A DNA stretch of 32,000 bases from Schaalia meyeri (GTDB taxonomy: Bacteria; Actinomycetota; Actinomycetes; Actinomycetales; Actinomycetaceae). Of the stretch, positions 1 to 30,347 are shown in pieces (positions within the stretch are counted from its first letter, which is position 1; each line of letters begins with the position of its first letter). Where the stretch lies: contig NZ_FNLK01000014.1 in the NCBI RefSeq assembly GCF_900105015.1, forward strand, positions 30,001 to 62,000, read 5' to 3'. The notes under the pieces were generated by a model. That model saw only the letters and a program-made list of their open reading frames with translations. It made no database searches and was not told the origin of the DNA. The translations under genes and the position numbers were made by a program.

Positions 1-543
1 GGCACCAACTACGCGCTCGCCGACCAGGCCTCTCAAAAGAGCTTCGAAAAGTTCTTCAACGAGAACAAGGTCGCCTTCATGGTCGGAACCGGAAACATTG
101 GAGAAAAGATCGACAAATCGCTCTGGGACGCTGACGCGGTCGGCGTGATGCCCATTCCGGGTACGACCAGCGGCTCCGTCGGACAGACGTTCGCGGGAGG
201 CTCCTCCGTCTCGATGGCGGCCAAGGCGCACAACCCGGAACTGGCCGCCAAGGCACTCGAGCTCATCTATTCGAAGGACTTCCAAGAGTCGGTCGCCAAG
301 GCCGGATGGACGCCGGGCAACTCCACGTACGCAAGCGCTCAGACGGGAGCTTTCGCGAAGATCGCGCCCACTATCGTCGCCAACTCCAAGCTCACTCCCA
401 ACACTCCGCAGTGGGGAACCTCCGCGGGCGACAGCGACCTGCGCGACTTCTTCATGGCGATCGCACAGGGGTCCGACGTGCGTGGGACCGCAAGCGACTT
501 CGCCCAAAAACTCACTGAAGCCTTGAACACCGAGCAACGATGA
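1..543 (+). CDS. ABC transporter extracellular solute-binding protein, carbohydrate type (3' part; 5' end outside window)
   Basis: Frame 1 is open from base 1 (GTNYALADQASQ...) to TGA 541-543, so the 154-aa track ORF is the tail of a longer gene. The stop overlaps the ATG of the next gene (ATGA at 540-543). It lies directly upstream of two MalF/MalG-type permease genes. Confidence 0.8.
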   Translation, partial: GTNYALADQASQKSFEKFFNENKVAFMVGTGNIGEKIDKSLWDADAVGVMPIPGTTSGSVGQTFAGGSSVSMAAKAHNPELAAKALELIYSKDFQESVAKAGWTPGNSTYASAQTGAFAKIAPTIVANSKLTPNTPQWGTSAGDSDLRDFFMAIAQGSDVRGTASDFAQKLTEALNTEQR

Positions 544-1481
544 CCACCTCAGTGAAGACGCCTGCGCGCCCGGCGAAAGGATGCCGGGCGCGCAGGCGGG
601 GCATCCCGTATCTGCTGCTGACCCCGGCAACGGCAGTCGTGCTCGTCGTCCTCGGTTACCCGATGCTGCGCCAATTCATCATGTCATTCCAAAAGTTTGG
701 CCTGAAGCAGCAGTTCGGCGCCCCACCGGAGTGGGTGGGCCTGGACAATTACACCAGCATCCTCACCGACAGCTACTTTTGGACCGTGACGGCCAAGTCG
801 TTGCTTTTCTGCCTGTGGACCGCCGGATGGACCATGGCGCTGGCAATCGCCTTCGCCCTCATGATGAAAGCTGCCTCCGCTCCGATTCGCACGCTCATGA
901 ACGCGGTTCTGGTCATCGTGTGGGCGATGCCCCTGCTTGCGACTCTGACGGTGTGGCAGTGGCTCGTGAATAAGAACTTCGGGTTGCTGAACTACGTGCT
1001 CGCGGTGCTGGGCTTCGAACAGGCTTCACAGACCGCGTGGCTCGCGCAAAGCTACTGGACCTTCTTCCTGATCGCTTCCGCGATCATCGTATGGGCGTCG
1101 ATGCCGCTGGCCACGATCTCCATCTATGCGGCCATGACGCAGATTGACGGCGCCCTCATCGAAGCCGCACAGATCGACGGAGCCTCCTACTGGCAGCGGC
1201 TGCGCTACGTCGTGTTCCCCTCCGTGTCGCCCGTGATCGCTCTGATCGGCGTCCTCCAGGTCATCTGGGACCTGAGGGTGTTCACGCAGATCTATGTGCT
1301 TCAACAGTCGGGTTCTATATCGGATGAAACGAATCTGCTCGGCACATACATCTACAAGGTCGGCATCTCGCAAGGAAACTACGGCGTGGCATCCGCGCTG
1401 GCAACCATCGTCCTCCTCATCACATTGGTAATCACGTCGCGCTACATTCACATGCTCTTCACGAAGGGAGATCGACTATGA
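540..1481 (+). CDS. ABC sugar transporter permease (MalF/UgpA-type)
   Basis: 313-aa ORF with multiple hydrophobic spans. EAA-loop motif EAAQIDGASYWQRLRYVVFP. 4-bp overlaps with the genes on both sides. Confidence 0.9.
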   Translation: MTTSVKTPARPAKGCRARRRGIPYLLLTPATAVVLVVLGYPMLRQFIMSFQKFGLKQQFGAPPEWVGLDNYTSILTDSYFWTVTAKSLLFCLWTAGWTMALAIAFALMMKAASAPIRTLMNAVLVIVWAMPLLATLTVWQWLVNKNFGLLNYVLAVLGFEQASQTAWLAQSYWTFFLIASAIIVWASMPLATISIYAAMTQIDGALIEAAQIDGASYWQRLRYVVFPSVSPVIALIGVLQVIWDLRVFTQIYVLQQSGSISDETNLLGTYIYKVGISQGNYGVASALATIVLLITLVITSRYIHMLFTKGDRL

Positions 1482-2365
1482 GCGTTATGGGTAGAATCTC
1501 GCCAAAACGCGCCGCGTTGACGAGGCGGCGACCCCTGCGCACGCGCATCGGTGTCGCAGTCGTGAACATCGTCCTCCTCCTGTGCGCCTTGCTGTGGTTG
1601 CTGCCGGTCTATTGGATGGTGAACTCATCGCTTCAGACGGACCGCAACCTGCTTGCCTCGCCTCCGAAACTGTGGCCCGCGCCGGCCACCTTCGAGCATT
1701 TTCACTCGGTGCTCGTTTCCCCCGTCTTTCACCGGGCTCTCGGCATGTCGCTCCTGACCGCGCTCATCACGGTGCTCGCGACGACGACCCTGTCGCTGCT
1801 CGCCGCGCTGGCCCTGACACGTTTCCAATTTCGAGGAAAACGGAGCTTCATCGTCGCGGTCCTCGTCGTCCAGATGATCCCCGCCGAAGCGCTGTTCATC
1901 TCCCAATACCGAATGCTGGACGCGTGGAGCCTTTTGAACTCGGTGGCGGGCCTGTCGTTGCTGTACGTCGGGGGCGTGCTCCCCTTCGTCACGTGGATGA
2001 TGAGAGGCTACGTGGAGGCGGTGCCCGAGGAACTCGAACAGGCCGCGATGATCGACGGATGCTCGCGGATGGGGGCGTTTATGCGGGTGACGCTGCCGCT
2101 GCTGGCGCCGGGCCTCGTCGCGACCAGCGTGTTTTCCTTCCTCCACTCGTGGAACGAATACACGCTGGCCCTCATCGTGCTGTCGCGCGATAGCGCGGTG
2201 ACTCTCCCGCTGTGGCTCCAATCGTTCCAACAGGGACTGCGCGGAAGCGACTGGGGAGGGGTGATGGCCGCATCCACGATCATCACGATCCCCGTCCTCA
2301 TCCTGTTCATGATCGTGCAGAACCGGATGAGCGCCGGCTTAGTGTCCGGAGCGGTCAAAGGGTAG
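1478..2365 (+). CDS. ABC sugar transporter permease (MalG/UgpE-type)
   Basis: 295-aa ORF with multiple hydrophobic spans. EAA-loop motif EQAAMIDGCSRMGAFMRVTLP. ATGA overlap with the upstream permease. Confidence 0.9.
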   Translation: MSVMGRISPKRAALTRRRPLRTRIGVAVVNIVLLLCALLWLLPVYWMVNSSLQTDRNLLASPPKLWPAPATFEHFHSVLVSPVFHRALGMSLLTALITVLATTTLSLLAALALTRFQFRGKRSFIVAVLVVQMIPAEALFISQYRMLDAWSLLNSVAGLSLLYVGGVLPFVTWMMRGYVEAVPEELEQAAMIDGCSRMGAFMRVTLPLLAPGLVATSVFSFLHSWNEYTLALIVLSRDSAVTLPLWLQSFQQGLRGSDWGGVMAASTIITIPVLILFMIVQNRMSAGLVSGAVKG

Positions 2366-2529
2366 GGACGCGGGGCCGTGAGCGCGAAACACCAGGCGCT
2401 TCGCTGGCTGTCTACCGCGCCACGCTTCGCCCCTCCCGTTTCCCTTCGGCGGTTCCAACCTGCCACCATACTCGGGTGAGTGAGACAAAGAACCCAGCCC
2501 TGGCTTCGTTAGAGCGCGAGGCGGGACCC

Positions 2530-3963
2530 ATGATCCTGCAGGCCTTTGCGTGGGACATGAAGGCGGACGCAAGCCACTGGCGCTACCTCGCGCACCACGC
2601 GCGCGAGATCGCCGATCTGGGCGTCAGCGTCGTCTGGCTGCCGCCCGCCTACAAGGGCAAAATGGGGATCAACGACGTCGGATACGGCGTCTACGACCTG
2701 TACGACCTGGGCGAGTTCGACCAGAAGGGTTCCGTTCCCACGAAGTACGGGACGAAGGACGAATACTTGGCGGCCATCAATGCGCTGCACGAGGAGGGGG
2801 TGGCAGTTGCCGCCGACATCGTCCTCAACCACCGCATGGGTGCCGACGCCTGTGAGACGGTGCTCGCCACGCCAATCGATCCGAACGATCGGCGCAAGGT
2901 CGTGGGGGAACCCGAGACAATCGAGGCGCGTACGCGCTTTACGTTCCCCGGGCGCGCGGGCGCCTACTCGGACTTCACGTGGGACTGGACGTGCTTCCAC
3001 GGGGTCGACTGGGACGTGGCCACGGAGCGCAAGGGCCTGTGGCTCTTCGAAGGAAAACAGTGGAACGATAACGTCGCAGGCGAGCTGGGCAACTACGACT
3101 ACTTGATGGGCTCTGACGTGGACGTTACGGCCCCGGCTGTGAGCGCCGAGCTCGACCGGTGGGGTCGGTGGTATGTGGAGACAACTGGCGTGGACGCGTT
3201 GCGCTTAGACGCCGTGAAACACATCGGCTCCGACTTCTACGCGCGTTGGATCGCCAACCTGCGCGCGGCCACAGGGCGGACGCTGCCCGCCGTCGGTGAG
3301 TATTGGAGCGGGGACGTGAGGGAGCTCGAACGCTATCTTGAGGCCGTGCCCGACATCATGCTCTTCGATGTTCCCCTGCACTTCCGCCTCCACGCCGCCT
3401 CCACCTCGGATGGGAACGCCGACCTGTCGCGCCTGTGGGAGGGGACGCTCACCAGTTCGTACCCGGACCGCTCCGTCACCTTCGTCGAGAACCACGACAC
3501 GCAGCCCGGCCAGTCGCTGGCGTCCACGGTCGCGCCCTGGTTTAAGGCGTCCGCGTACGCGCTGATCCTGCTGGGCGAGGCCGGGGTGCCCTGCGTGTTT
3601 TGGGGCGATCTCTTTGGGACTCCCGAGACCGGCGATCTGACGGCGGTGCCTGAGCTGCCCATCCTCATGTCGATCCGTTCGCGCGCGGCCATCGGCGTCC
3701 AACATGACGCCTTCGACGACCCCGACGTGGTCGGTTTTGCCCGCGAGGGCAAAGCGGACGTGGACGGATCGGGTTGCGCGGTCATCGTTTCCGACCGCTA
3801 CGCCGCCGAAAAGAGACTCTACGTGGGGGAGCGCCACGCGGGTCAGGAGTGGGAGTGCATCATCGGCTCGCACCCGTGCGTGCGCGTCGGCGATGACGGT
3901 ACCCTCACGGGGTTTGTCAAAGACGGTGGGCTGAGCGTCTACGTTCCGTGCGCGGGCGCCTAG
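2530..3963 (+). CDS. Cytoplasmic GH13 alpha-amylase
   Basis: All four GH13 conserved regions are readable: DIVLNHR, GVDALRLDAVKHI, AVGEYW, FVENHD. No signal peptide. ATG 2530 (MILQAFAWD...) has GAGG 8 nt upstream. The 583-aa track ORF start at 2212 would overlap the permease gene. Confidence 0.9.
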   Translation: MILQAFAWDMKADASHWRYLAHHAREIADLGVSVVWLPPAYKGKMGINDVGYGVYDLYDLGEFDQKGSVPTKYGTKDEYLAAINALHEEGVAVAADIVLNHRMGADACETVLATPIDPNDRRKVVGEPETIEARTRFTFPGRAGAYSDFTWDWTCFHGVDWDVATERKGLWLFEGKQWNDNVAGELGNYDYLMGSDVDVTAPAVSAELDRWGRWYVETTGVDALRLDAVKHIGSDFYARWIANLRAATGRTLPAVGEYWSGDVRELERYLEAVPDIMLFDVPLHFRLHAASTSDGNADLSRLWEGTLTSSYPDRSVTFVENHDTQPGQSLASTVAPWFKASAYALILLGEAGVPCVFWGDLFGTPETGDLTAVPELPILMSIRSRAAIGVQHDAFDDPDVVGFAREGKADVDGSGCAVIVSDRYAAEKRLYVGERHAGQEWECIIGSHPCVRVGDDGTLTGFVKDGGLSVYVPCAGA

Positions 3964-3969
3964 GAAACC

Positions 3970-3990
3970 CCGGCCTCGTGCCCAGGCCGG
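3970..3990. terminator. Hairpin between convergent genes (candidate bidirectional terminator)
   Basis: CCGGCCT (3970-3976) pairs with AGGCCGG (3984-3990) around a 7-nt loop. It lies in the 47-bp gap between the amylase stop (3963) and the minus-strand gene stop (4011). Confidence 0.45.
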
Positions 3991-4010
3991 TGCCCCTCCC
4001 GCTCGGCGCG

Positions 4011-4829
4011 TTACTCCTGCGTGCCGCCCAGCGCGGGAATGCGTTCAATCTGCTCCTTGAAGAAGGCCTCGGCCGCAGAAATGAAACGGTCGATGTTCAT
4101 CCCGACCTGCGTGTCAGTGAGGCCGTAGCGCGCGGTCACAAACTGTTCGGCGCACACGCGCTGGGTTCCATCGTCCAGCGCCGCAACGTAGACCTTGGGC
4201 CACCTGGTGGACGCGTTCCAGTCGTTGCACGCCTGGATCAGGCGCGGGCGCAACTCCATCGACACGTCCTCGCGGATCGCGCCCCACATGCTCAGGTCCG
4301 CAGAGTCCTCAACGACAGAGAACATGTAATAGCCCTGGGAGAATCCCGTGCGCAGGCGCTTGTCCTCAACGTCGTACTTGTAATCGTTGCGATCAAAGAA
4401 ATCGGTGATCGCCTTCATGTCGAGGGGACGCACGACCGTGCGTAGTTCGAGGGCGCGCTTGCATTCGGCGATGATCTGCGGAGCGTCCTCGTTGGTCGGA
4501 TCCATAGCGAGGCATTGCTCAAGGTAGGTCAGCGCGTTCTCTTCCTCGTCCTGCCAGTACAGGGCGGTACCGATCCGGTAGTACCACAGCGGGTCGGACA
4601 TGCCTTCCGCCTCAACGCCGCGCAGCAGCTCGACAGCGTGCTTGATGTGCTCCCGGAAGGAATCCATGTAGGGTTGCGCGTAGTTGATGTATGCGCGGGC
4701 CAGCAGGCTGGTGAGCTCGTAGTCCAACACGGACGGGGGCTGGCCTTCAATGAGGGCAATGATCTTTTGATGTTCCTTCTCATCGTGCAGGGTATTGATC
4801 TGCGCGATGAGCGATGAACGCGAATCCAC
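4011..4829 (-). CDS. TPR-like helical-repeat domain fused to a YbjN-family (T3SS-chaperone-like) domain
   Basis: The N-terminal half has a TPR-type consensus (LWYYRIGTALYWQDEEENALTYLEQCLAMDPTNEDA). The C-terminal half has the YbjN-type signature (LIQACNDWNASTRWPKVYVA...DGTQRVCAEQ). The GTG at 4829 is preceded by AAGGAG with a 5-nt spacer. The track ATG at 4856 has no SD and is the alternative start. Confidence 0.75.
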   Translation of the reverse strand: MDSRSSLIAQINTLHDEKEHQKIIALIEGQPPSVLDYELTSLLARAYINYAQPYMDSFREHIKHAVELLRGVEAEGMSDPLWYYRIGTALYWQDEEENALTYLEQCLAMDPTNEDAPQIIAECKRALELRTVVRPLDMKAITDFFDRNDYKYDVEDKRLRTGFSQGYYMFSVVEDSADLSMWGAIREDVSMELRPRLIQACNDWNASTRWPKVYVAALDDGTQRVCAEQFVTARYGLTDTQVGMNIDRFISAAEAFFKEQIERIPALGGTQE

Positions 4830-5085
4830 GGAAGCTCCTTTATAGCAAGGGGACATGCGAGTACCTGGTCACAAGCATATCAGGGGTTGCCAGGAGGCTG
4901 AGCGTTGGGTGGGCGTCTCGCTCACCGTGTCGGGCGGCGAGGTGAGCGACATCGTTGCGAAGACGGCCAAGCACGATTGACGGCCTGCGTGCCGCCGGGT
5001 GGCCGGGGCGCCCGCACAGGCGTCACCGTTGCCGCAAATACCGTCGGTGCTGGGAAGAGCGCCGGGCTGATGCGGATCTCCCGGA

Positions 5086-7854
5086 TCAGCTTCTAGAGTT
5101 CCAGTTCTGCCAGTCGTTCCAGTCATCGTCTTGCGCGTCGATGGCGATGATCGGTACGCGGTCGGACGGCGTCTGTTCGTCGACTTCAGGCGTGGCGGGT
5201 GCGGGTTCTTCCCGCTGCTTCCGGCGCCTGCCCCAGCCCCAGCGCTTGCGGCGCTTCGACTCGCCTTCCTGCTCCTGGCGAGCCTCTTCGTTCCACGAGA
5301 ACTCCGCGTTCCAGTCCTCCTGAACTGACGGTGGCACCGCCGGTGCCTGCGGGGCGGCCGGTGCCTGCGGAGTGGCCATGGGACCAGGCTGTGAGGGAAG
5401 CGGTGGCGCCGAGCTCTGGGGGGCCGGCGTGCTCTCGCGCGCCGGCGGAGGCGCGAGCGGGGGAGTGTCCACGAACGCGTGTTCCCGTCGCGGCGGCTCG
5501 GGGGCGGGCGTAGCCGAGGCCGGCGTCGACCAGTCAAAGGAACTGGTGCTTCGAATCCGAGGCAATCGAGCGGTGGGCAGCTCCGCTTCGTCGTCAACAG
5601 GCATCAACGAGGCCGGGGCGGGCTCGGGTTCGGGCGCAAAGACCGGTTCTGGTTCCGGCGTGGCATCCGGTGTGTACGGGGGTGCGATGGCCGGTTCCGG
5701 TTTGGGCGCGAGCGGCGGCGTGATCGCCGGTTCCGGCTCGGGCGCGACGACCGGCTCCGGCTCGGGCGCGGGCGGTGGCGTGATGGCCGGTTCCGGCTCC
5801 GGCTTGGGTTCGGGCGCAAAGACCGGCTCCGGCTCGGGCGTGGGGTCCGGTGTGTACGGGGGTGCGATGGCCGGTTCCGGTTTGGGCGCGGGCGGTGGCG
5901 TGATGGCCGGTTCCGGCTCCGGCTTGGGTTCGGGCGCAAAGACCGGCTCTGGTTCCGGCGTGGGGTCCGGTGTGTACGGGGGTGCGATGGCCGGTTCCGG
6001 TTCGGGTGCGAAGACTGGCTCCGGGTCCGGCGTGGGCGCGACGGGTGCGGGCGGAGGCGCGAGGATCGGCTCTGGTTCGGGAACCGCGACGGATTCCGCA
6101 GCGGGCATCGGAATGACGGCTCGCTGAATCCTGGGAAGCAGCAGAGTATCGGTCGCCTCGTCGGGGTTTTCGGCCGCCTCGTCGAGGCTGGCGGGAGGAG
6201 GGGGGACGGGCGCTGCAAAATGCGCGGGAGCCTCTTCCGCGCGAGCGGGCGCGTTCGCCTCGGGTTGGGGCACGGCGCGTGCCTGCACCTGTTTGCCCGG
6301 CTGTGCGAACGATGCCGCAGAGGAATCCTCAATGGGCGCTCGTTCGGATGCGACGTGGGTCTCGCGATCCCACACGGAAGCGCTCCGGCGGGAACCTTGG
6401 CTGCCTTCGATCGACGGTGGGGCGGCAGGAATCGGCGCAACCGGGGTGTTCGCACCCCGCTGTGGCGAGGCCGCGTCCGGGACGCTCGGTTCCTGGGTTG
6501 AACCCGCGGAGGAGGGGGGCTGCGGGAACGGCTGCGCGGGACGCTCAGGGAAGACCGCGGGGCGGTGACCGCTGCGTGAATGCCTCCTCTTCGGTGTCAT
6601 CGGCACCCGCGCGGATGCATCAGCACTGGTCTGTGCGGCGTGAGCGGGGCGTGACTTATCCCCCCGGGCGAAACTTGTGTCGCTTGGGGTTGACTGGGGA
6701 GGAGTGGAGGTGCTCGCCTGCGTAGGCTCGGGCGCGGGCACCGACTCGGGCGCAGGTACTCGCTTGGACACAGGCACCCGCTTGGGTTCGGACGCGGGTG
6801 GTGTCGCGGGTGCGGGCATCGGCTTGGGTGCCGGCGCGGGTGCCGGTTTGGGTGCAGGTGCCGGCGCCGGCGGGGGAATGGGCGGGGTAGGACGCCGGGA
6901 GGAATCGGGATCCACCGATTCCCGACGCGCCTGGACCGGCGGGGGAACGGCGGCCGCGGAAGGCCGGGATGGCGGCGCGAAAGCCACGGGCGCCGTGGAA
7001 GCACGAGGCCCCCCGGCCTCGTTGATCCGTGATGCGGAGGGACGCCGGACGTGCGACGGATGCGCGGGGCGCTTCGCTCCCCTCGACGACTCCTCGGATT
7101 TCCTCGCGCGCAACACGTAGAAGATGATGACGGCCACGAGCACCAGGACAATGAGACTAACGATCAAAGCGATAAGCAGGCCGATCGAGGGATCCGAGGA
7201 CGAGGCCGCGGCCGCAGCCTCGGGAGAGGCACCGTTTCCGGGGATGGGAGTGACCCCCCACGGATTCTTCAGGCCGTTCGCGCCGCCCCCCGTCGAGAGG
7301 TTGCCGCCAGCGTTAAGCGAACCGTTGACCGTGATCACCTGGGGAACTGGGGTGGTCCAAGTGGACACGGACAGGGACCTGCCCTCGTAGATTGTCGCAG
7401 AGGTTGATGCCCCGGAAGTTGACGACTTCACTTCTCCTTCGACGCTCAGGAACACCGACGCCAGGGACAGCGACGAACCAAAAATCTTGCGGTACTCGGA
7501 TAACGTCTGATCCGTGCGGGCCGTCAACACAAACTCGCCCGAGTCCTGGACCGCGAACTCAGGATCGTCCTGGAGGCGGCTGTACATGAGCTGCATGTGG
7601 CAAACGGATGCGTCATCGCGCGTCATGAACTCGACGTGGTGGTCCGTGGAATTGCCCACATAGGGGTTGCAGATGGACTCGCTCATCGTGCGCGAGGGAT
7701 CCGTGACAGTCAACGTGTCGACGACCTGACCGTCCTTGGTCACAACGTATGCCTCCGACAGGGTCGGTGCGTTGGCAGCGTGAGTGGCCGACGGTAGCGT
7801 GAGCGCGATGAACAGTGCCCCGAGCGTGGCGCACAGGGCGCGAGAGAGTCGCAT
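5086..7854 (-). CDS. Type-I membrane protein: signal peptide, ~195-aa uncharacterised ectodomain, one TM helix, ~670-aa proline-rich repeat tail
   Basis: 922-aa ORF with AGGAGG (7860-7865) 5 nt upstream of the ATG. Signal peptide MRLSRALCATLGALFIALTLPSATHA. TM at IGLLIALIVSLIVLVLVAVIIFYVL followed by RARK. The remainder is Pro/Ala/Glu-rich with 40-aa tandem repeats. Confidence 0.8.
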   Translation of the reverse strand: MRLSRALCATLGALFIALTLPSATHAANAPTLSEAYVVTKDGQVVDTLTVTDPSRTMSESICNPYVGNSTDHHVEFMTRDDASVCHMQLMYSRLQDDPEFAVQDSGEFVLTARTDQTLSEYRKIFGSSLSLASVFLSVEGEVKSSTSGASTSATIYEGRSLSVSTWTTPVPQVITVNGSLNAGGNLSTGGGANGLKNPWGVTPIPGNGASPEAAAAASSSDPSIGLLIALIVSLIVLVLVAVIIFYVLRARKSEESSRGAKRPAHPSHVRRPSASRINEAGGPRASTAPVAFAPPSRPSAAAVPPPVQARRESVDPDSSRRPTPPIPPPAPAPAPKPAPAPAPKPMPAPATPPASEPKRVPVSKRVPAPESVPAPEPTQASTSTPPQSTPSDTSFARGDKSRPAHAAQTSADASARVPMTPKRRHSRSGHRPAVFPERPAQPFPQPPSSAGSTQEPSVPDAASPQRGANTPVAPIPAAPPSIEGSQGSRRSASVWDRETHVASERAPIEDSSAASFAQPGKQVQARAVPQPEANAPARAEEAPAHFAAPVPPPPASLDEAAENPDEATDTLLLPRIQRAVIPMPAAESVAVPEPEPILAPPPAPVAPTPDPEPVFAPEPEPAIAPPYTPDPTPEPEPVFAPEPKPEPEPAITPPPAPKPEPAIAPPYTPDPTPEPEPVFAPEPKPEPEPAITPPPAPEPEPVVAPEPEPAITPPLAPKPEPAIAPPYTPDATPEPEPVFAPEPEPAPASLMPVDDEAELPTARLPRIRSTSSFDWSTPASATPAPEPPRREHAFVDTPPLAPPPARESTPAPQSSAPPLPSQPGPMATPQAPAAPQAPAVPPSVQEDWNAEFSWNEEARQEQEGESKRRKRWGWGRRRKQREEPAPATPEVDEQTPSDRVPIIAIDAQDDDWNDWQNWNSRS
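5621..6040 (-). repeat. In-frame tandem repeat array, 120-bp unit (40 aa), about 3.5 copies with an internal 60-bp duplication
   Basis: 5761-5820 versus 5881-5940 differ only in the first 3 nt. 5821-5880 versus 5941-6000 differ at about 4 positions. 5641-5700 is a further copy. 5701-5760 is an extra half-unit, and there are degenerate ends at 5621-5640 and 6001-6040. Confidence 0.9.
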
Positions 7855-7880
7855 GCAGTCCTCCTGATATGAGTCACTCG

Positions 7881-7909
7881 ATTATCGTCCGTTCGTGGAT
7901 ACAAAGCAA
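7881..7909 (-). promoter_or_regulatory. Candidate sigma-70-type promoter of the 922-aa gene
   Basis: On the minus strand: TTGCTT (7909-7904), a 17-nt spacer, then GATAAT (7886-7881), about 27 nt upstream of the ATG. It lies in a ~50% GC intergenic region. Confidence 0.3.
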
Positions 7910-8096
7910 CGAGGGGACCTCAATGCGAGATTAACTGACCGGCTGTAAAGGGAAAGGGGGGCGACTGTCAAAAAGAAACGCACCCTCTTGGTAAGGTCAG
8001 ATGGTATTGTGTCGCGTACTATGACAGGAGTCTACCTGCAGTCAGGATTTCAATGAAGAAGGACGTTGTTGCCAGCTGTCACGAAGGAAGTGTCCC

Positions 8097-8723
8097 ATGA
8101 AGTGCCGACACGCCACGCGCGAAGACATCCCCGCGATCACACGAATTGTCACCGAGGGATTTCTGGACTACCCGCTGCACATCATGCTGAAGCCGTACCT
8201 CTACCAGCCGGAGCATTACCCGCAGTGCCTGACCGCGATGAATCGCATGCTCGCCCGAGCCTATCAGCGGTCACGGAAAGCCCTCGTCGTCGAGCAAGAC
8301 GGGCGTGTTATCGCAACGGCCCTCATGCACGACCGCAAGGTGGGCCTGATGCGCAATGTCACGAGCGGGGGGTATGACCTCTTTCGATATGCCTCCCCCC
8401 GACTCATCGCCGACTTTGCTGACGTCACCGACCGTGCCGACCAGATTGCCATCGACAACGGGCATTTTGACTGGTACCTCGAGATCCTCTCGGTGGACAA
8501 AAGCATGCGCGGCCACGGAGTCGGTCGTTGGCTCGTCTCCAAGGTGCTGCCCGACTTCGTGGCGAAGCGAGGCGGGTATGGGTACGGATTTGTGACGTCA
8601 ACGGAATCGAATGCTCGTTTCTACATCAACGGCGGCTGCGAGCTCGTTGGACGCGTGGATGTGTCGATGAGGGAACAGACGTGCCCGATTTGGGCCTTTC
8701 AGAGGCGGGCGGAGAGGCTGTGA
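8097..8723 (+). CDS. GNAT-family N-acetyltransferase
   Basis: 208-aa ORF with GAAGGAAG upstream of the ATG. Acetyl-CoA pocket motif MRGHGVGRWLV (R/Q-x-x-G-x-G/A) within LEILSVDKSMRGHGVGRWLVSKVL. Confidence 0.85.
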   Translation: MKCRHATREDIPAITRIVTEGFLDYPLHIMLKPYLYQPEHYPQCLTAMNRMLARAYQRSRKALVVEQDGRVIATALMHDRKVGLMRNVTSGGYDLFRYASPRLIADFADVTDRADQIAIDNGHFDWYLEILSVDKSMRGHGVGRWLVSKVLPDFVAKRGGYGYGFVTSTESNARFYINGGCELVGRVDVSMREQTCPIWAFQRRAERL

Positions 8724-8835
8724 CGGGAAGGGGAATCCGGCAGGCTGCGAGGTGGCGTACCGAGCATCCTGAGGGGGCCGCGTTGTGCGCGGTTTGCGCA
8801 GGTCGCAGGGCGTGATACACGTCCCGCAGTTCCGC

Positions 8836-8866
8836 TTGACTTCAAGGGCTTGAGGTCTTTTAGGGT
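8836..8866 (+). promoter_or_regulatory. MerR-type promoter: -35 TTGACT, 19-bp spacer containing a dyad operator, -10 TAGGGT
   Basis: TTGACT (8836-8841), a 19-nt spacer (8842-8860), then TAGGGT (8861-8866). The dyad GACTTCAAG-GG-CTTGAGGTC (8838-8857) has 9-bp arms with one mismatch. The ATG lies 6 nt after the -10, which suggests a leaderless transcript. Confidence 0.6.
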
Positions 8867-8872
8867 GAAGCC

Positions 8873-9334
8873 ATGGCAGGAACAGGCTCCGGGCGCACGT
8901 ACTCCATCAAGGAGGTGTCGGCGCTCGTCGGCTTGCCCGCATCCACGTTGCGTTACTACGAGGACGTGAGTGTCATTCCTGCCATCGCGCGCGACCCCTC
9001 CAGCGGTCACCGCATCTACATGGAAGAAGACCTCGAACTGCTGACGTGGGTCGCCTGCCTGTCCGCCTCGGGCATGTCCATCGCCGACATGCGCGAATAC
9101 GTGCGGTCGGGATTGGGCGGAGAACGCGACATTTCCGAGTTCGTCGCCCTGCTGGAGCATCAGGATGAGCGATTGCGGGAAGAAGCGCAGATCATCGAGC
9201 TGCGCCGCGAGTTTTTGCGCACGAAGGTCGCCTACTGGCGCGCGGTCAAGCGTGAGGACACGCCGGAAGCCGCGCGTTTGGACGCCGCTGCACGCGCGCT
9301 TGCGGAGCGGTTGAAGGCGTGGTCGTTGCGCTAG
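8873..9334 (+). CDS. MerR-family transcriptional regulator (short, NmlR/AdhR-like, no ligand domain)
   Basis: N-terminal HTH YSIKEVSALVGLPASTLRYYEDVSVIP...GHRIY, followed only by a coiled-coil dimerisation helix. A single Cys sits in WVACLSASGMSIADMREY, at the position of the conserved Cys of NmlR/AdhR-type regulators. Confidence 0.88.
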   Translation: MAGTGSGRTYSIKEVSALVGLPASTLRYYEDVSVIPAIARDPSSGHRIYMEEDLELLTWVACLSASGMSIADMREYVRSGLGGERDISEFVALLEHQDERLREEAQIIELRREFLRTKVAYWRAVKREDTPEAARLDAAARALAERLKAWSLR

Positions 9335-9340
9335 TTAAAG

Positions 9341-9387
9341 CCTAGTGGGGCGGGTTTCAAGCCTGCTCCGAACCTCGCCCCGCTAGG
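9341..9387. terminator. Long imperfect GC-rich stem-loop downstream of merR
   Basis: CCTAGTGGGGCG (9341-9352) pairs with CGCCCCGCTAGG (9376-9387), with one G-U pair. The stem can extend via GGTT/AACC inside the loop. Confidence 0.4.
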
Positions 9388-9394
9388 GGGCACG

Positions 9395-9425
9395 GGGCCG
9401 CGCACCTGGCTCGGGTGCGCGGCCC
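9395..9425. terminator. Perfect 12-bp GC-rich hairpin (candidate bidirectional terminator)
   Basis: GGGCCGCGCACC (9395-9406) pairs with GGTGCGCGGCCC (9414-9425) around a 7-nt loop, followed by TCATTT. It lies between convergent reading frames ending at 9334 (+) and 9430 (-). Confidence 0.6.
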
Positions 9426-9429
9426 TCAT

Positions 9430-9792
9430 TTACGCGCGCTGGGGGAAGGAGGGAAACACGCGCCCCAGGTAAGCCGTGTCGCGTTCGATGAGGGCGGACA
9501 GATGTTCCCAGGCAAGCCCCTCATCCTCGTGCCAGGAGATTTCTGCGACAACGAGGAGGCGGGGAAACAGGTCGCACGCACGGTGCAAGGCCGCTTCAAC
9601 GAAGTTCAGAGAGGAGGCGAGCGGCCAGAGGGGCGTGTTAGCGGCACAAACGTCGCCGTGGGTGACCAGGCGTGGGTTTCCCATGTGCGGGTACGAACGG
9701 ATGGATGCGCCGGCGTGGGAGGGGACGGAGATCTCCGGGACGATGGCGAAAAACGTTGCGCTGGCGCGTGATGCGAGAGCTTTTGTTCGGTG
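9430..9792 (-). pseudogene. C-terminal relic of an APH/choline-kinase-fold phosphotransferase
   Basis: The frame is open only from 9792 (stop at 9793-9795). It contains the catalytic-loop pattern LVTHGDVCAAN (HGDxxxxN). The following metal-binding segment reads NFVEAA where D-W/F-E is expected. There is no room for an N-lobe, because the next gene starts at 9846. The only ATG gives 84 aa. Confidence 0.35.
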
Positions 9793-9817
9793 TCAAAGTG
9801 TGTCACAATCGTGTGAA
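9791..9817 (+). promoter_or_regulatory. Three phased direct repeats TGTCAA / TGTCAC / TGTGAA upstream of the GS-family gene (candidate response-regulator box)
   Basis: The repeats start at 9791, 9801 and 9812, a spacing of 10 and 11 bp. GTCAC-n6-GTGAA loosely resembles the actinobacterial GlnR a-site/b-site layout (gTnAc-n6-GaAAc). They lie 29-55 nt upstream of ATG 9846. Confidence 0.25.
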
Positions 9818-9845
9818 CCTAATCATGCTCAATGAGGAGTGATCT

Positions 9846-11339
9846 ATGCTGTCGACCGACACTATTTCCCTCAGTCCCAACCCCCTCGTCCAGGCGCTCG
9901 GAAAGCCTGCGAAGGAGTTTACGAAGTCCGACATCATCGGCTATATCGAGGACAACAACATCCCGATGCTGAACCTGCGCTACGTCGGAGGCGACGGGCG
10001 TCTCAAGACACTTAACTTTGCGGTCCAATCCAAGGCGCACTTGGACCGCGTCCTCACGCTCGGCGAGCGCGTCGACGGGTCTTCGCTCTTTACTTTTGTC
10101 GATGCGACCTCCTCGGACCTGTACGTCGTGCCGCGCTTGTCGACGGCCTTTCTGAACCCATTCACGCCGATCAAGGCGCTCGATATCCTGTGCGGTTTCT
10201 ATGACGTGGACGGAGTACCCTTGGCCTCGGCGCCCCAGGAGATCTTGCGCAAGGCACAAAACGCCCTGAGGCAGGAAACCGGCTGCGAGCTTCAGGCGCT
10301 GGGAGAATTGGAATACTACCTGTTCTCCGACCGGGAGGAGCTCTTCCCCGTCGAACCCCAGCGGGGCTACCACGAGTCCGGCCCCTTCTCGAAGTGGGAG
10401 AACGTGCGCACGCAGACCCTGCTTCACCTGGTCACAATGGGATGTGCGGTGAAGTACGCGCATTCGGAGGTGGGCAACTTCGTGGCGGACGGGCGCCAAA
10501 TGATCCAGCAGGAAATCGAGTTCCTCCCCGTCGATGTGGTTGATGCTGCCGACCAGATGGTGCTGGCCAAGTGGGTGCTGCGCGAGGTTGCGCACGCCCA
10601 TGGCATTGAGGTGTCATTCGCGCCGAAGATCGCGGTCGGGCAAGCCGGATCCGGCATGCACTTCCACACCCGTCTGGTGAAGGACGGCGTTAACCGGTTC
10701 TCGACAGGATCGGGCCTGACCAAGGACGCGCTCAAGGTCATCGGCGGGTATCTTTCGCATGCCGCGTCGCTCACCGCTTTCGGCAATACCGCGCCCACAT
10801 CCTTCCTGCGCCTGGTTCCCCACCAGGAGGCGCCAACAGCGATCTGTTGGGGCGATCGCAACCGTTCCGTTCTGGTGCGCGTTCCGCTGGGATGGCAAAA
10901 CATCGATGATTCGATGTTCCGCGACGCAAACCCCGCCGAAACGCAGCTGATCGACCTGCCCAACGATTCCCAGACGATCGAGCTGCGCAGCCCCGACGGA
11001 TCCGCGGACATCCACCTGCTGCTGGCGGGCATCACGGTCGCCGCGCGCCTTGGGCTGACGGAGCCGGGCATGGCTAAATACGCGCGCCAGCGCAAAGTCG
11101 ATGGCGATGCCTCGCAGACGCCCGGCCTCGAGCAGCTGCCCGCCTCGTGCTTCGAGGCCGCCGGTCGACTCCTTGCTCAGCGAAAGGACTACGAGGCGCG
11201 CGGCGTATTCCCCTGCGGCCTCATAGATTCGTGGGTGTCGCACCTGGTCGACCTGGGCGACGAGCACCTACGGGACGACCTGGCAGAATCCAGGGTCTCA
11301 GTCGAGGAACTCGTCACACGCTACTTTCATGTCGGCTGA
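9846..11339 (+). CDS. Glutamine synthetase family protein (GSI-like catalytic motifs, atypical subtype)
   Basis: GAGGAG lies 6 nt upstream of the ATG. GS motifs present: ELEYYLF, HSEVG...QQEIEF, GSGMHFH, TSFLRLVPHQEAP, RNRSVLVRVP, IELRSPD. Confidence 0.88.
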   Translation: MLSTDTISLSPNPLVQALGKPAKEFTKSDIIGYIEDNNIPMLNLRYVGGDGRLKTLNFAVQSKAHLDRVLTLGERVDGSSLFTFVDATSSDLYVVPRLSTAFLNPFTPIKALDILCGFYDVDGVPLASAPQEILRKAQNALRQETGCELQALGELEYYLFSDREELFPVEPQRGYHESGPFSKWENVRTQTLLHLVTMGCAVKYAHSEVGNFVADGRQMIQQEIEFLPVDVVDAADQMVLAKWVLREVAHAHGIEVSFAPKIAVGQAGSGMHFHTRLVKDGVNRFSTGSGLTKDALKVIGGYLSHAASLTAFGNTAPTSFLRLVPHQEAPTAICWGDRNRSVLVRVPLGWQNIDDSMFRDANPAETQLIDLPNDSQTIELRSPDGSADIHLLLAGITVAARLGLTEPGMAKYARQRKVDGDASQTPGLEQLPASCFEAAGRLLAQRKDYEARGVFPCGLIDSWVSHLVDLGDEHLRDDLAESRVSVEELVTRYFHVG

Positions 11340-19165: not shown

Positions 19166-20200
19166 ATGGATGAGCCCATGGCGTCGTCCCAGGCGGCTCC
19201 TGACGACCTGACCGCAACAAGCTATGTTCCTCAGCTGCTCGGCGGTCACCTGACATATTCCGCCCGGGACATTTCTCAGGCCACGAATACGCCGATCGAG
19301 CGCGTCTTCCAGTTCTGGATCGCCCTGGGTTTCCAGGCTCCCGGCGCCGACGATCCTGTCTTTTCTCAGCGTGACCTTGACGTGTTCAATCGGTGGCACG
19401 ACCTCGTTGAGTCCGGCGATATTGACACCGCGACGTCCCGTTCGCTCCTGCGCGCGAGCTCCCACCTGGCCGACAGGCTGGCCCTGTGGCAGTACGAGGC
19501 CCTGGTCGAGGATTCGATGCGCCGATTGATGCTGGACGACACGACCGCCCGCATGTACGTGCTGGACCACATGCGCGAGTACGTCGACGTCTTCCAAGAG
19601 ATGTTCACCTATTCGTGGCGACGCCAGCTTGAGGCAACCCTGTCACGCTTCGATCGAGAGGTCTCTCAGCGAGGCCACGAGGAGCGGCATGACCGCTTCC
19701 CGCTGAATCGATGCCTCGGCTTTGTCGACATGGTTTCCTACACGTCCTCATCGACGATCCTCGGCGACGCGCTGGTCGGGCTTATCGGGCGCTTCGAAGA
19801 GGAGAGCCGAACCGCCGTGATCGAGGAGGGCGGGCGCGTCGTAAAGATGATCGGGGACGCCGTGCTGTACATCGCGGATGACCTGTCGACCGGGCTGCGC
19901 GTCGTCACCGCACTCATCGAACGCCTGAATGCCGACGACGAGATGCTGCCCGTGCGCGCTTCCTTCGTGCGCGGGGACGTTTTTTCACGCTCGGGCGACG
20001 TGTTCGGGCCGACCGTCAACCTCGCGTCTCGCCTCGTGGACATCGCGCCGGTCGGGAAAATCCTCACCGATCCGGCGACCGCCGCCGCTATCGCCGCAGG
20101 CAAGGGGGGAGACGGCTACGAACTCGAGGAATTCCCCACCGCGGACTTGCGCGGTTTTGGTCCGGTTTCCCCCTACCTGCTGTCTAGCGTCGTGGACTAG
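19166..20200 (+). CDS. Class III adenylate/guanylate cyclase with ~170-aa N-terminal helical (HTH-like) domain
   Basis: Cyclase blocks GFVDMVSYTS, VKMIGDAVLY and GDVFGPTVNLASRL in the C-terminal half. GAGGAG lies 9 nt upstream of the ATG. Confidence 0.85.
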   Translation: MDEPMASSQAAPDDLTATSYVPQLLGGHLTYSARDISQATNTPIERVFQFWIALGFQAPGADDPVFSQRDLDVFNRWHDLVESGDIDTATSRSLLRASSHLADRLALWQYEALVEDSMRRLMLDDTTARMYVLDHMREYVDVFQEMFTYSWRRQLEATLSRFDREVSQRGHEERHDRFPLNRCLGFVDMVSYTSSSTILGDALVGLIGRFEEESRTAVIEEGGRVVKMIGDAVLYIADDLSTGLRVVTALIERLNADDEMLPVRASFVRGDVFSRSGDVFGPTVNLASRLVDIAPVGKILTDPATAAAIAAGKGGDGYELEEFPTADLRGFGPVSPYLLSSVVD

Positions 20201-20995: not shown

Positions 20996-22324
20996 ATGCG
21001 CGCACGCGCGGTGAGGATGATCGTTAGCGTCGTCGCCGTCGTGTGCATGCTGATGGGCCTTCCAGGCGCGTTTTTTGCCTCCGCGTCCGTCTGGGCGTCC
21101 GAGCAGCGCAGCCTGGAGGTCCAGTCGCAGCTGATCCTGCGCAGCATCGAACGCAGACGCGCCGCGGGAGAAAACAACGATGCCGCGACGCTGGCCTCGT
21201 TGGTCGCCGATCAGGCGAAGAGCCGAGGCGGTGAGCTGGCCTACCGGATCAAGATCCCGGACGCGAACCTGGTGACCAACGGGAAGAACATCCCGGGGCA
21301 CACAATGTCGGCGGTCGCCTCCTCGCCCAGCGGCGTCTCCGTGCAGCTGACCTCCTCCGCGTCGGGCGCACTGAGTCGCATCGCGTGGGTGTGTGCGCTG
21401 TTCGGGAGCGGCATGGCGATCTCCATGCTGATCGGCTGGCTGATGGCGCGCTCGCTATCGCGCGACCTGTCGGCCCCCCTCATCTACCTGGCGGCGCAGG
21501 CCGAGCAGATCGGATCGGGCGGCGTTCGCGCACGCGTGGAGCGTTCGGGTATCGAAGAGATCGACCTGGTCTCAGAGGAACTGGCCCGCACGGGCGAGCG
21601 CATGGCCGGGCGCCTGGCCGCCGAACGACAGGCCGCAGCGGACGCCTCCCACCAGCTGCGCACCCCGATCACGGCGCTATCGATGCGGTTGGAGGAGATC
21701 GAATTGATCTCCTCGGAGGAAGACGTGCGCGCCGAGGCCCGCACCTGCCTCGAACAGGTCGAACGCATGACGAACGTCGTCACGGAGCTCCTGGACGTCT
21801 CCAAGCGAGAGAGCGGGCAGACCGAGGCGATCCACATCCTGGAGGTCTTTAACACGGCCCGCGAAGAGTGGGAGGACCAATTCGAGGCGGCGGGCAGGTC
21901 CCTGGTGTTCCTAGACGAAGCCGAGCGCCCGATCCTGGCGGATGCGGGAAAGCTCGGGCAGGTGCTCGCGACCCTCATCGAAAACTCGCTGCGATACGGC
22001 GACGGGACGACTCGTGTCTGGGCGCACGCGGGTTCCTCCAAGCGTGGCGTCGTCATCGAAGTGAGCGACGAAGGGGAGGGAATCGAAGAAAGTCTCGCCC
22101 CGGACATCTTCGAAAAGGGCGTGTCCGGGCACGGGTCGACGGGTATTGGTCTGGCCCTCGCACACGACCTGGCACAGGCGATGGGGGGACGGCTCGAACT
22201 GAAAAACAATAAACCCCCGGTCTTTACGGTCTCCGTGGCCGCCATTCCAGCGTCCCTGGACCCCGATCGCGTCATGCCAGAGGGGCCCCTCATGTCGATG
22301 GGACGCAGGTCGCGTCGCTTCTAG
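20996..22324 (+). CDS. Sensor histidine kinase (two TM helices, HAMP, HisKA, HATPase_c)
   Basis: H-box SHQLRTPITAL, N-box LIENSLRYG, G1 DEGEGI, G2 GHGSTGIGLALA. GGGAGG upstream of the ATG, 24 nt after the regulator's stop. Confidence 0.92.
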   Translation: MRARAVRMIVSVVAVVCMLMGLPGAFFASASVWASEQRSLEVQSQLILRSIERRRAAGENNDAATLASLVADQAKSRGGELAYRIKIPDANLVTNGKNIPGHTMSAVASSPSGVSVQLTSSASGALSRIAWVCALFGSGMAISMLIGWLMARSLSRDLSAPLIYLAAQAEQIGSGGVRARVERSGIEEIDLVSEELARTGERMAGRLAAERQAAADASHQLRTPITALSMRLEEIELISSEEDVRAEARTCLEQVERMTNVVTELLDVSKRESGQTEAIHILEVFNTAREEWEDQFEAAGRSLVFLDEAERPILADAGKLGQVLATLIENSLRYGDGTTRVWAHAGSSKRGVVIEVSDEGEGIEESLAPDIFEKGVSGHGSTGIGLALAHDLAQAMGGRLELKNNKPPVFTVSVAAIPASLDPDRVMPEGPLMSMGRRSRRF

Positions 22325-27460: not shown

Positions 27461-27495
27461 TCGTCCAGTGTCGCACATTGGGGTGTCGGCGCGCC

Positions 27496-27501
27496 TATAG
27501 T
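27496..27501 (+). promoter_or_regulatory. Candidate -10 TATAGT for the plus-strand sugar-modification operon
   Basis: TATAGT lies in the 111-bp divergent intergenic region, 70 nt upstream of GTG 27572, which has its own GAGGGAG SD. Confidence 0.3.
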
Positions 27502-27571
27502 GTGGGTATCTGGCGGGCATCCCGTCCGCCGGGGGCGCGCCTGAGCTCACACGAAACCCGAGGGAGATACT

Positions 27572-29346: not shown

Positions 29347-29347
29347 A

Positions 29348-30334: not shown

Positions 30335-30347
30335 GGAAGTGGCGCGG

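Follow-up and report, generated by a model that had tools for sequence, protein, structure and literature searches.

The 32,000-nucleotide stretch of Schaalia meyeri DNA analysed here (contig NZ_FNLK01000014.1, positions 30,001 to 62,000 of the forward strand; hereafter the window) carries on its minus strand, at 5086–7854, an open reading frame (ORF) of 922 amino acids. The encoded protein consists of a signal peptide, a small two-cysteine ectodomain, one transmembrane helix and a proline-rich tail of 674 residues. The coding sequence is complete (922 amino acids plus a stop codon at 5086–5088) and opens with an ATG; inspection of the upstream sequence (...ATCAGGAGGACTGC-ATG) revealed a Shine-Dalgarno sequence, AGGAGG, at 7860–7865, 5 nt before the start codon. 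An earlier note on this DNA, made from its letters alone, had singled out the same ORF as a membrane protein with a giant tail. Its reading of the frame is borne out, and each feature that it quoted was found at the residue where it had been placed.

Chance long ORFs are frequent at 70% G+C, and several overlap the 922-aa ORF in the window; conservation was therefore the deciding test of whether the gene is real. A scan of one genome per species identified 22 loci encoding relatives of the ectodomain, all from the Schaalia, Pauljensenia and 'Actinomyces odontolyticus-group' clade, two of them in evidently mislabelled assemblies. Thirteen complete orthologues from other Schaalia and Pauljensenia species, 784–995 aa long, keep the frame, and all 13 end in ...DDWNDWQNWNSRS. 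Four further S. meyeri alleles (865–915 aa) are likewise intact; they differ from the window almost solely by in-frame indels in two repeat arrays, outside which they are 97–100% identical to the window protein. Across species, six of the last 17 codons show synonymous-only variation and none shows an amino-acid replacement. Thus, the frame is translated and has been under purifying selection right up to the stop codon, and the alignments indicate that the ORF is a real, conserved gene.

The two mislabelled loci, L011 (NZ_JVOJ01000058.1, 'Sanguibacter keddieii 250_SKED') and L012 (NZ_JVKM01000038.1, 'Xylanimonas cellulosilytica 352_XCEL'), are syntenic with Schaalia loci, to which their ectodomains are 64–65% identical. 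Both are nearly identical to Schaalia sp. ORNL0103, and for this reason their organism labels look wrong. An exact-sequence look-up of the 922-aa protein returned no record, because the gene calls that the collection holds for the NCBI S. meyeri genomes omit this gene. Intact ORFs of 911–915 aa are present at positions 1–3100 of both L024 (CP012072.1, S. meyeri W712) and L026 (KV814510.1), where short opposite-strand ORFs (83–236 aa) have been called in their place. The MerR neighbour in the window is identical to that of CP012072. The gene has been called in two ENA metagenome contigs, as proteins of 865 and 905 aa. It serves as a warning about annotation, in that the calls for two NCBI genomes miss it and contain spurious opposite-strand ORFs instead.

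Ectodomain and membrane helix

The protein begins with a signal peptide (residues 1–26; 7777–7854) composed of the n-region MRLSR, a hydrophobic core and a c-region, T-H-A/AN, whose predicted cleavage site fits the -3/-1 rule. This signal peptide is conserved in all orthologues (GAHA/AD, GAYA/AD and ASFA/TD). No lipobox is present, and a lipoprotein reading was rejected on that basis. Residues ~30–190 (7285–7767) form a predicted extracytoplasmic beta-domain of 11 strands and one helix (114–125), with two invariant cysteines, C62 and C85, the latter within CHMQLMY. The remaining cysteine of the protein, C8, lies in the signal peptide, and the tail contains none. An AlphaFold2 model of the ectodomain, built from a 27-sequence alignment, has a predicted local distance difference test score (pLDDT) above 90 over residues ~30–190, followed by a low-confidence linker and the transmembrane helix. 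The linker (residues 191–222; 7189–7284) is acidic and rich in Ser, Ala, Gly and Pro, with pLDDT below 50 at residues 208–221.

The transmembrane helix occupies residues 223–248 (7111–7188), with a 19-residue Kyte-Doolittle mean of up to 3.64 and a modelled helix at 224–258. It is followed by a basic stop-transfer segment, RARK (residues 249–252; 7099–7110), which is conserved in the orthologues as RSKRSK, RAKRGKK or KRSKKS. The signal-peptide-like N-terminus, the two-cysteine ectodomain and the single helix followed by RARK had all been proposed in the earlier note, and all three are present. The 15 residues that precede the helix in the window protein contain no Lys or Arg, and the 15 that follow it contain six. 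The same bias was found in 22 of 22 family members, with 0–1 Lys/Arg and 1–4 Asp/Glu before the helix and 3–6 Lys/Arg after it.

With a signal sequence and a single further hydrophobic segment, the C-terminus must therefore, as a prediction, be cytoplasmic. The topology is predicted to be type I, that is N-out/C-in with a single pass and a cytoplasmic tail. Confinement of the cysteine pair to the N-terminal domain, the dense Arg/Lys clusters of the tail and the absence of an LPXTG motif are consistent with this orientation. The positive-inside argument by which the tail had earlier been placed in the cytoplasm is thus supported, as a prediction, by both the signal sequence and the charge bias. 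The contrast then drawn with surface adhesins also holds, as there is no LPXTG and a wall-spanning stalk would need its Pro-rich region on the other side of the helix.

A structural comparison of the ectodomain, which had been suggested as a check, was made with Foldseek. The best match in the PDB was LppM of Mycobacterium tuberculosis (2nc8, a nuclear magnetic resonance structure), with an E value of 8e-5, a probability of 1.0, a template modelling score on the target length (TMt) of 0.50, which is borderline, a root-mean-square deviation (rmsd) of 5.9 Å and 10% identity. An LppM-like fold is probable on this model. No named family emerged: sequence searches of Pfam and NCBIfam and a profile search of the PDB gave nothing or sub-threshold matches to the transmembrane helix, the ectodomain profile did not retrieve 2nc8 from all PDB sequences at E ≤ 10, Pfam gave no relevant match at E ≤ 10 for the window protein or its distant relatives, and NCBIfam gave none for the window protein. 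The earlier statement that no named domain could be recognised therefore stands for the sequence; it does not stand for the structure, since the predicted model best matches the LppM fold. In the viral structure library BFVD, the sole match below E 1e-3 was A0A1W6DYJ3, a DUF7424 protein of Aeromonas phage phiA8-29 (E 9e-6), which with a template modelling score of 0.30–0.35 and an rmsd of 11.5 Å is probably not meaningful.

An exhaustive profile search of 1.84 billion representative proteins yielded 30 matches. Mapping of the family, also proposed in the earlier note, thus placed the ectodomain in a small two-cysteine family restricted to the Actinomycetaceae. Two distant members, P0049 and P0051, possess the signal peptide, the domain, the transmembrane helix and the basic anchor, with tails that are shorter, disordered and unrelated, and their genes occupy the same chromosomal slot. 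The P0051 gene (locus L029) is followed by a tandem array of four more ectodomain-plus-helix paralogues and one ectodomain-less copy, which a profile–profile comparison (hhalign) aligned with the family of the window protein at a probability of 98.3% and an E value of 1.6e-14, both cysteines included. The paralogue array and the layout of P0049 and P0051 therefore make the ectodomain-plus-helix unit a small Actinomycetaceae-specific family in its own right, and these comparisons indicate that the giant tail is a lineage-specific addition to it.

The L029 cluster extends over 2967–10012 and contains at least five tandem ectodomain-plus-helix genes (394, 319, 349, 342 and 310 aa) and the ectodomain-less copy (240 aa), each encoding a signal peptide, a transmembrane helix, a basic anchor and a short tail rich in Gln, Pro and Ser. 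A 304-aa ORF at 4138–5052 of the same locus, beside a run of N, is probably a wrong-frame artefact. The downstream ORFs had been taken as YbjN-like; this was rejected by hidden Markov model search, and the hhalign comparison identified them as the paralogues described. A further protein, P0054 (1807 aa), contains at residues ~1120–1560 five tandem repeats of ~95 aa that match positions 51–143 of the ectodomain profile (library-wide E 5e-7). This large low-G+C surface protein carries a Big_2 domain, an InlB B-repeat and, at its C-terminus, an anchor made of PQTGS, a transmembrane segment and KKYRKLKR, and its repeats may be distant structural relatives of half the ectodomain or a compositional match.

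Spacers and conserved islands of the tail

The tail comprises 26% Pro, 16% Ala and 9% Glu, with 64 basic and 88 acidic residues. Its earlier description as Pro/Ala/Glu/Ser low complexity is correct for composition; it does not hold as a picture of uniformity, because conserved short motifs alternate with length-variable spacers. Tandem Repeats Finder confirmed both classes of repeat that had been reported, a micro-repeat (24-nt period, 6809–6871) and a 40-aa repeat (120-nt period, 2.4 copies, 89% matches, 5727–6010). The first corresponds to an array of PAPAPKP and PAPAPAPKP units at residues 329–345 (6820–6870), with PAPAPAPKPAPAPAPKP at residue 329; it varies by in-frame indels among S. meyeri alleles and is absent in other species. 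The second belongs to an acidic PEPEP-x-x-x array at residues ~591–752 (5599–6084), in which PEPEPVFAPEP recurs at residues 633, 673 and 733. The length of this array varies by in-frame indels within S. meyeri and also between species, whose tails measure 531–742 aa. The two arrays are inferred to be length-variable spacers between conserved islands.

The islands begin close to the membrane with SHVRRPS (residues 267–273), recognised in the full-length alignment. Residues 390–403 (6646–6687), PSDTSFARGDKSRP, are a degenerate copy of the family motif PR[DE]TGF[VT]W.HKSRP, the core of which is kept even in ectodomain-less relatives (TPRETGFVWQ). A basic island, PKRRHSRSGHRPAVFPERPAQP, follows at residues 421–442 (6529–6594); it has the consensus [KR]3-4.SR..HRPAVFPE.P.QP, in which HRPAVFP is invariant, and 7 of 15 codons show synonymous-only variation.

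The LPRI sequences that the earlier note had observed on both sides of the repeat array, at residues 573 and 764, each belong to a longer conserved motif, T-x-x-[LI]-P-[RK]-Φ, here called the T-motif after its central Thr, which is T570 in the first copy and T761 in the second. T-motif A, DEATD-TLLLPRI-QRAVIPMP, spans residues 565–584 (6103–6162). Its family form is [DE]...T[ML]L[IL]P[KR][IV], and it reads [DE]..TMLIPKV in all complete orthologues of the Schaalia clade that have the canonical C-terminus. T-motif B, DDEAELP-TARLPRI-RSTSSFDW, spans residues 754–775 (5530–5595) and conforms to DD.E[ML]PTA.[ILF][PR]R[VI]R......W, with DDxEMPTAQI[PR]RVRRV....W in the orthologues. A stretch rich in Pro, Gln and Ala separates T-motif B from the last two islands.

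Residues 845–881 (5212–5322), QEDWNAEFSWNEEARQEQEGESKRRKRWGWGRRRKQR, combine a Trp-acidic segment with a polybasic Trp/Gly patch and are nearly invariant (QEDWN.E.SW..EA..EQEG..KRR..WGWG[KR]RRK.R). The two Trp-acidic clusters described earlier, EDWNAEFSWNEE at residue 846 and DDDWNDWQNWNSRS at residue 909, indeed flank the basic RRKRWGWGRRRKQR, which starts at residue 868 and opens the polybasic patch of residues 868–881. The protein ends with the peptide RVPIIAIDAQDDDWNDWQNWNSRS-COOH at residues 899–922 (5089–5160), whose columns are invariant across 16 sequences (P[MI]I[SA][VI]DAQDDDWNDWQNWNSRS-COOH). A search with the C-terminal 183 aa for a wider family sharing this region returned just fragments of the same orthologues; such a family was rejected, and the Trp-acidic module is therefore clade-specific.

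AlphaFold, applied to the same 183 residues with a 16-sequence alignment, predicted disorder (mean pLDDT 57, predicted template modelling score 0.15), and a hidden folded domain was rejected for this part of the tail. Marginal helices were modelled at residues 854–868 and at the C-terminal Trp motif, the latter with the highest pLDDT of the tail (~73). The charge of the tail is arranged in blocks, residues 249–448 being net positive in nearly every 25-residue window and residues 549–748 carrying a net charge of -1 to -6 per window. A scan of the tail for amphipathic helices gave no convincing membrane-binding helix, and the highest hydrophobic moments fell in basic, Pro-containing segments.

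Across 20 family members, 28 matches to the pattern T..[LIF]P[RK][IVFYL] were counted, compared with 0.22 expected from shuffled sequences. A sister lineage of Pauljensenia and Schaalia spp. has lost the ectodomain and has kept the signal peptide, the transmembrane helix, the basic anchor and all modules of the tail. Its GlnA is 86–91% identical to that of the rest and the gene lies in the same syntenic slot; this level of identity places the ectodomain-less lineage within the clade. A vestige of the first strand remains (PPLSETSVLATD...). The tail of this lineage carries TPRETGFVWQ, the patch KKRHWPWSKRRKQK / KKRFGFGRR, the C-terminus VDAQNDDWQNWNSRN and a copy of T-motif B (GVPTVQMPQF..FDW), and in place of the PEPEP array it has five tandem copies of PEDPGxxTVKLPR[FY]KPE. 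At one locus (L031, 9001–11245) two overlapping called genes (323 and 438 aa) make up the ectodomain-less orthologue and together contain the full tail with a canonical C-terminus; the split stems from either a frameshift within the repeats or a faulty assembly.

Since the tail was retained after the ectodomain had been lost, the membrane-tethered tail is the conserved functional core of the protein in this clade. The enrichment of the motif and its five-fold amplification likewise mark the 'LPRI' of the earlier note as part of a genuine multivalent short linear motif. Together with the alignments, which show the same for the Trp-acidic and basic C-terminus, they indicate that these elements are conserved islands and not noise. 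The conserved motifs of the tail are most likely docking sites for cytoplasmic partners.

Genomic neighbourhood

The gene lies in a housekeeping chromosomal region. On one side are genes for sugar ABC permeases, an alpha-amylase and a TPR and YbjN protein, and on the other a divergent GNAT acetyltransferase, a MerR/NmlR regulator, a GlnA-like protein, an acyltransferase, BipA and others. LytR-CpsA-Psr proteins and glycosyltransferases are encoded farther off, and no sortase or secretion genes were found in the window. The order GlnA-MerR-GNAT, the gene in question, TPR-YbjN and amylase is conserved throughout the clade.

The TPR and YbjN protein (281 aa, 4011–4856, minus strand; Pfam YbjN 1.5e-12 plus TPR) is encoded downstream and co-directionally, after a gap of 229 nt, and is a candidate partner. 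It is syntenic in all Schaalia lineages, including L031 and L028, the latter with three copies. These three tandem paralogues of L028 (275, 279 and 282 aa; 4195–6730) begin 130 nt past the gene for the distant family member P0049. Most species have one or two convergent EcsC-family genes between the gene and TPR-YbjN, so the gene is effectively monocistronic. An operon of the two was rejected, the linkage being genus-level synteny that is interrupted by these convergent genes in most species and lacks YbjN in L029. EcsC-family paralogues (~350–360 aa; Pfam PF12787) were located at L001 10689–12916 (minus strand), L014 10443–11501 and L031 11270–12313, and are absent from the S. meyeri window. 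A promoter and terminator scan found nothing above shuffled expectation, with no terminator-like site in the 229-nt gap past the stop codon.

Several other features of the window were recorded. Long ORFs at 3948–4445 (+), 4869–5597 (-) and 5479–6501 (+) overlap real genes in other frames or on the other strand; they have no family matches and are typical spurious high-G+C ORFs. A 344-aa protein encoded at 19166–20200 (+) matches the adenylate/guanylate cyclase family below threshold (E 5e-4; 20.0 bits, with the cutoff at 21.9), and a histidine kinase with a DraK-type N-terminal sensor domain is encoded at 20996–22324 (+). Two adjacent LytR-CpsA-Psr genes followed by DUF2304, a GT2 glycosyltransferase, a DegT-type aminotransferase, a GFO/IDH/MocA oxidoreductase and a GT4 glycosyltransferase (23655–31460) look like a cluster for the biosynthesis and attachment of a cell-wall glycopolymer.

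Possible functions and comparison with known systems

We infer that the protein may act as a membrane-anchored, multivalent short-motif scaffold built of two separable modules, with T-motifs that are possibly targets of Ser/Thr kinases and FHA domains; the chances that this reading is right are about even. The first module would comprise the signal peptide, the ~165-aa extracytoplasmic two-cysteine beta-domain with its probable LppM-like fold, and the transmembrane helix. The second, the ~670-aa disordered tail, would display short linear motifs to cytoplasmic partners. In order from the membrane, these would be the basic juxtamembrane islands (SHVRRPS, PR[DE]TGFxW and RRRSRxxHRPAVFP), the T-motifs, the polybasic Trp/Gly patch and the Trp-acidic C-terminus. 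At least two copies of an acidic-T-x-x-[LI]-[PR]-[RK]-Φ motif would be set along the tail, with the Pro-rich arrays as extended spacers whose length drifts through in-frame gain and loss of repeats. Judging from composition, the polybasic Trp/Gly patch probably binds an anionic surface, either inner-leaflet lipids or nucleic acid, and the acidic, Trp-rich peptide that forms the invariant C-terminus resembles a docking helix. Because the ectodomain is dispensable in the sister lineage, receptor signalling through the tail is less likely than a membrane-tethered scaffold.

In the most specific form of this reading, Hanks-type Ser/Thr kinases would phosphorylate the T-motifs, which would then be bound by FHA domains (pT with Leu or Ile at +3). 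The dominant phospho-acceptor motif of the M. tuberculosis Ser/Thr kinases is given as X-acidic(4)-T-X-(X/V)-Φ-(P/R)-I (Prisic et al., 2010, as quoted in PMC6888350). The Thr at position 0, Φ at +3, Pro or Arg at +4 (both of which occur) and the upstream acidic residues match this motif in both window copies and in the orthologues. A number of points weigh against the scaffold reading or this form of it. The match with the kinase motif is partial, as the final hydrophobic residue falls at +6, where the published motif has +5, and the acidic residues are found mainly from -3 to -6. The 32-kb window contains no kinase, phosphatase or FHA gene. The T-motif pattern was defined post hoc, from orthologues that are not independent of one another; moreover, one divergent orthologue (P0036) and one fragment do not match its regular expression exactly. 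Similarity of the ectodomain to LppM is borderline in structure and lacks support from sequence, and the family is confined to one genus-level clade, so that its function may be niche-specific or weakly constrained outside the motifs.

Alternatively, the motifs of the tail could be read by the neighbouring TPR and YbjN protein, whose TPR domain would clamp the acidic, Trp-rich C-terminus and so either tether the soluble protein to the membrane or chaperone the tail. TPR domains are able to bind acidic C-terminal peptides and Trp-acidic motifs. The gene lies directly downstream and co-directionally, it is retained in all Schaalia lineages including the ectodomain-less one, and it is triplicated beside the homologue in L028. 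YbjN proteins also fold like class I T3S chaperones, and for one member the binding of another protein is documented (PMC5398634; PMC3575483). However, these genomes share more than 82% GlnA identity and synteny over the whole region, so adjacency is little informative, and the intervening EcsC genes of most species preclude a single operon. The L029 lineage, which is more distant, lacks a YbjN gene within 6 kb, and the L028 homologue has YbjN neighbours even though its tail is unrelated and lacks the Trp motifs. This partnership is considered unlikely. The same low probability is given to a tail without specific partners, which would act as a charge-blocked disordered polymer, be it an entropic spacer or bristle or a self-associating condensate that organizes a membrane domain. 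Blocky charge (a basic membrane-proximal half, the acidic PEPEP array and the basic Trp patch), extreme Pro content, freely variable repeat length and predicted disorder would all suit a polymer. Polymer functions tolerate scrambling, yet islands of 7–24 residues are invariant with synonymous-only change, and one motif has been amplified five-fold as an exact unit in the sister lineage. Sequence-specific recognition is therefore indicated over a pure polymer role, although the polymer and the scaffold can coexist.

Two further possibilities appear less probable still. Gram-positive surface proteins typically carry Pro/Glu-rich repeat arrays that vary in copy number, and the length of the tail varies from strain to strain as in surface antigens, which would suit an extracellular tail serving as a wall-spanning stalk, an adhesin or a disordered region that probes the cell wall, a type of region known from some Gram-positive proteins. 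Against this, a signal peptide followed by a single helix must leave the C-terminus in the cytoplasm, a strong charge bias at the helix is shared without exception by all 22 members, and the 64 Lys/Arg residues of the tail, including those of RRKRWGWGRRRKQR, would be costly to translocate. The Pro-rich region is moreover C-terminal of the helix, the cysteines are confined to the N-terminal domain and LPXTG is absent; the adhesin or wall-spanning reading was rejected on topology and the lack of this motif. Scarcely more credible is a ZipA-like tether of the divisome or cytoskeleton, in which acidic-x-P-T-x-x-Φ-[PR]-R, as a mimic of the C-terminal peptide of FtsZ (D-[IV]-P-x-F-[LM]-R), would be recognised by SepF or a different reader of the FtsZ tail, or in which the C-terminal peptide would bind a cytoskeletal protein. 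ZipA does have an N-out transmembrane helix followed by a long Pro-rich cytoplasmic linker, and DDAEMPTAQIRR may bear a superficial resemblance to actinobacterial FtsZ C-terminal peptides such as DDLDVPSFLQ. However, the tail model has no C-terminal globular domain, no division genes lie nearby in the window, and the family is limited to one genus whereas the divisome is universal.

An extension of the scaffold reading would make the protein a bacterial counterpart of eukaryotic transmembrane adaptors. Thr motifs on a disordered tail of more than 500 residues would be phosphorylated by Hanks-type kinases and recruit FHA or other readers, and the Trp/basic patch and C-terminal peptide would provide additional docking. 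On the cytoplasmic side of the membrane they would thereby assemble a hub for signalling or envelope biogenesis, perhaps in the form of a condensate, with the LppM-like ectodomain as an optional input module. This extended form is speculative and, as a whole, improbable.

Bitopic bacterial proteins made mostly of a cytoplasmic, disordered, motif-bearing tail have rarely been described, and multivalent motif-based scaffolding is a eukaryotic paradigm whose exploration in bacteria is just starting. The family constitutes a natural experiment, with tails that occur with and without the ectodomain, a motif present in two to five copies, and spacers that change length in frame between strains. S. 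meyeri is an abundant member of the human oral microbiota, which lends an uncharacterized clade-specific envelope protein some practical interest, and strain W712 has been used as a host for Saccharibacteria HMT-952 episymbionts (PMC7651992). Should the function prove mundane, the gain would be no more than a small orphan family whose fold is probably LppM-like. Such an anatomy is unusual among bacteria and the hypotheses are testable, but the family is narrow.

Among known proteins, LppM (Rv2171), also from the Actinomycetota, resembles the N-terminal module in its signal peptide, extracytoplasmic beta-domain of ~160 aa and transmembrane helix after the domain. LppM is described as a distinct fold in which 11 strands make up a pseudo-barrel with a single closing helix, and it binds phosphatidylinositol mannosides (PMC6151718), an activity that is not to be assumed for the window protein. 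The high-confidence ectodomain model likewise has 11 strands and one closing helix, although the Foldseek probability of 1.0 is accompanied by a TMt of just 0.50, and sequence homology was not detected with PDB or Pfam profiles. LppM has a signal peptide with a lipobox (22-ATGC-25), a soluble domain and a C-terminal transmembrane segment (PMC5217060). In contrast, the signal peptide of the window protein has its C8 inside the hydrophobic core (R-A-L-C) and a type I cleavage site, T-H-A/A-N. The conserved cysteine pair is a further difference, as is the ~670-aa tail, which is absent from LppM.

Substrates of actinobacterial Hanks-type kinases and FHA ligands, such as disordered segments phosphorylated in envelope and division proteins of mycobacteria, resemble the tail in having a Thr motif, here in two to five copies, in a disordered and predicted cytoplasmic segment of a membrane protein. 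FHA domains prefer a hydrophobic residue at +3 relative to phosphothreonine, which the T-motif would suit. The terminal hydrophobic residue shifted by one position, the more distant acidic residues and the lack of a linked kinase or FHA gene set it apart, and the T-motif could equally be a non-phosphorylated docking strand. Bitopic proteins of the ZipA and TonB type also have a single transmembrane anchor and a long Pro-rich, charge-patterned linker of species-variable length, and ZipA has the N-out/C-in topology predicted for the window protein. Theirs end in a folded binding domain, whereas the tail ends in short motifs; the TonB linker is periplasmic, and neither protein is homologous to the window protein. 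LPXTG surface proteins are similar in their strain-variable Pro/Glu-rich repeats, signal peptide and hydrophobic segment followed by basic residues. They differ in possessing the LPXTG motif, in having 5–10 residues past the basic stop-transfer as compared with ~670 here, and in the placement of the repeats, which in the window protein (329–345 and ~591–752) follow the helix at 223–248.

As a functional analogy, eukaryotic type I scaffolds and receptors also pair a small ectodomain and one membrane helix with a long disordered tail that bears several short docking or phospho-motifs. The likeness extends to an ectodomain that is dispensable for the identity of the tail, although there is no evolutionary relationship. 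The window protein does not demonstrably belong to a named family, and the closest in kind would be a bitopic scaffold with a disordered, motif-bearing tail. It is predicted to join an LppM-like ectodomain-plus-helix unit to an unusually long, multivalent, disordered cytoplasmic tail, a combination found in one oral actinobacterial clade only.

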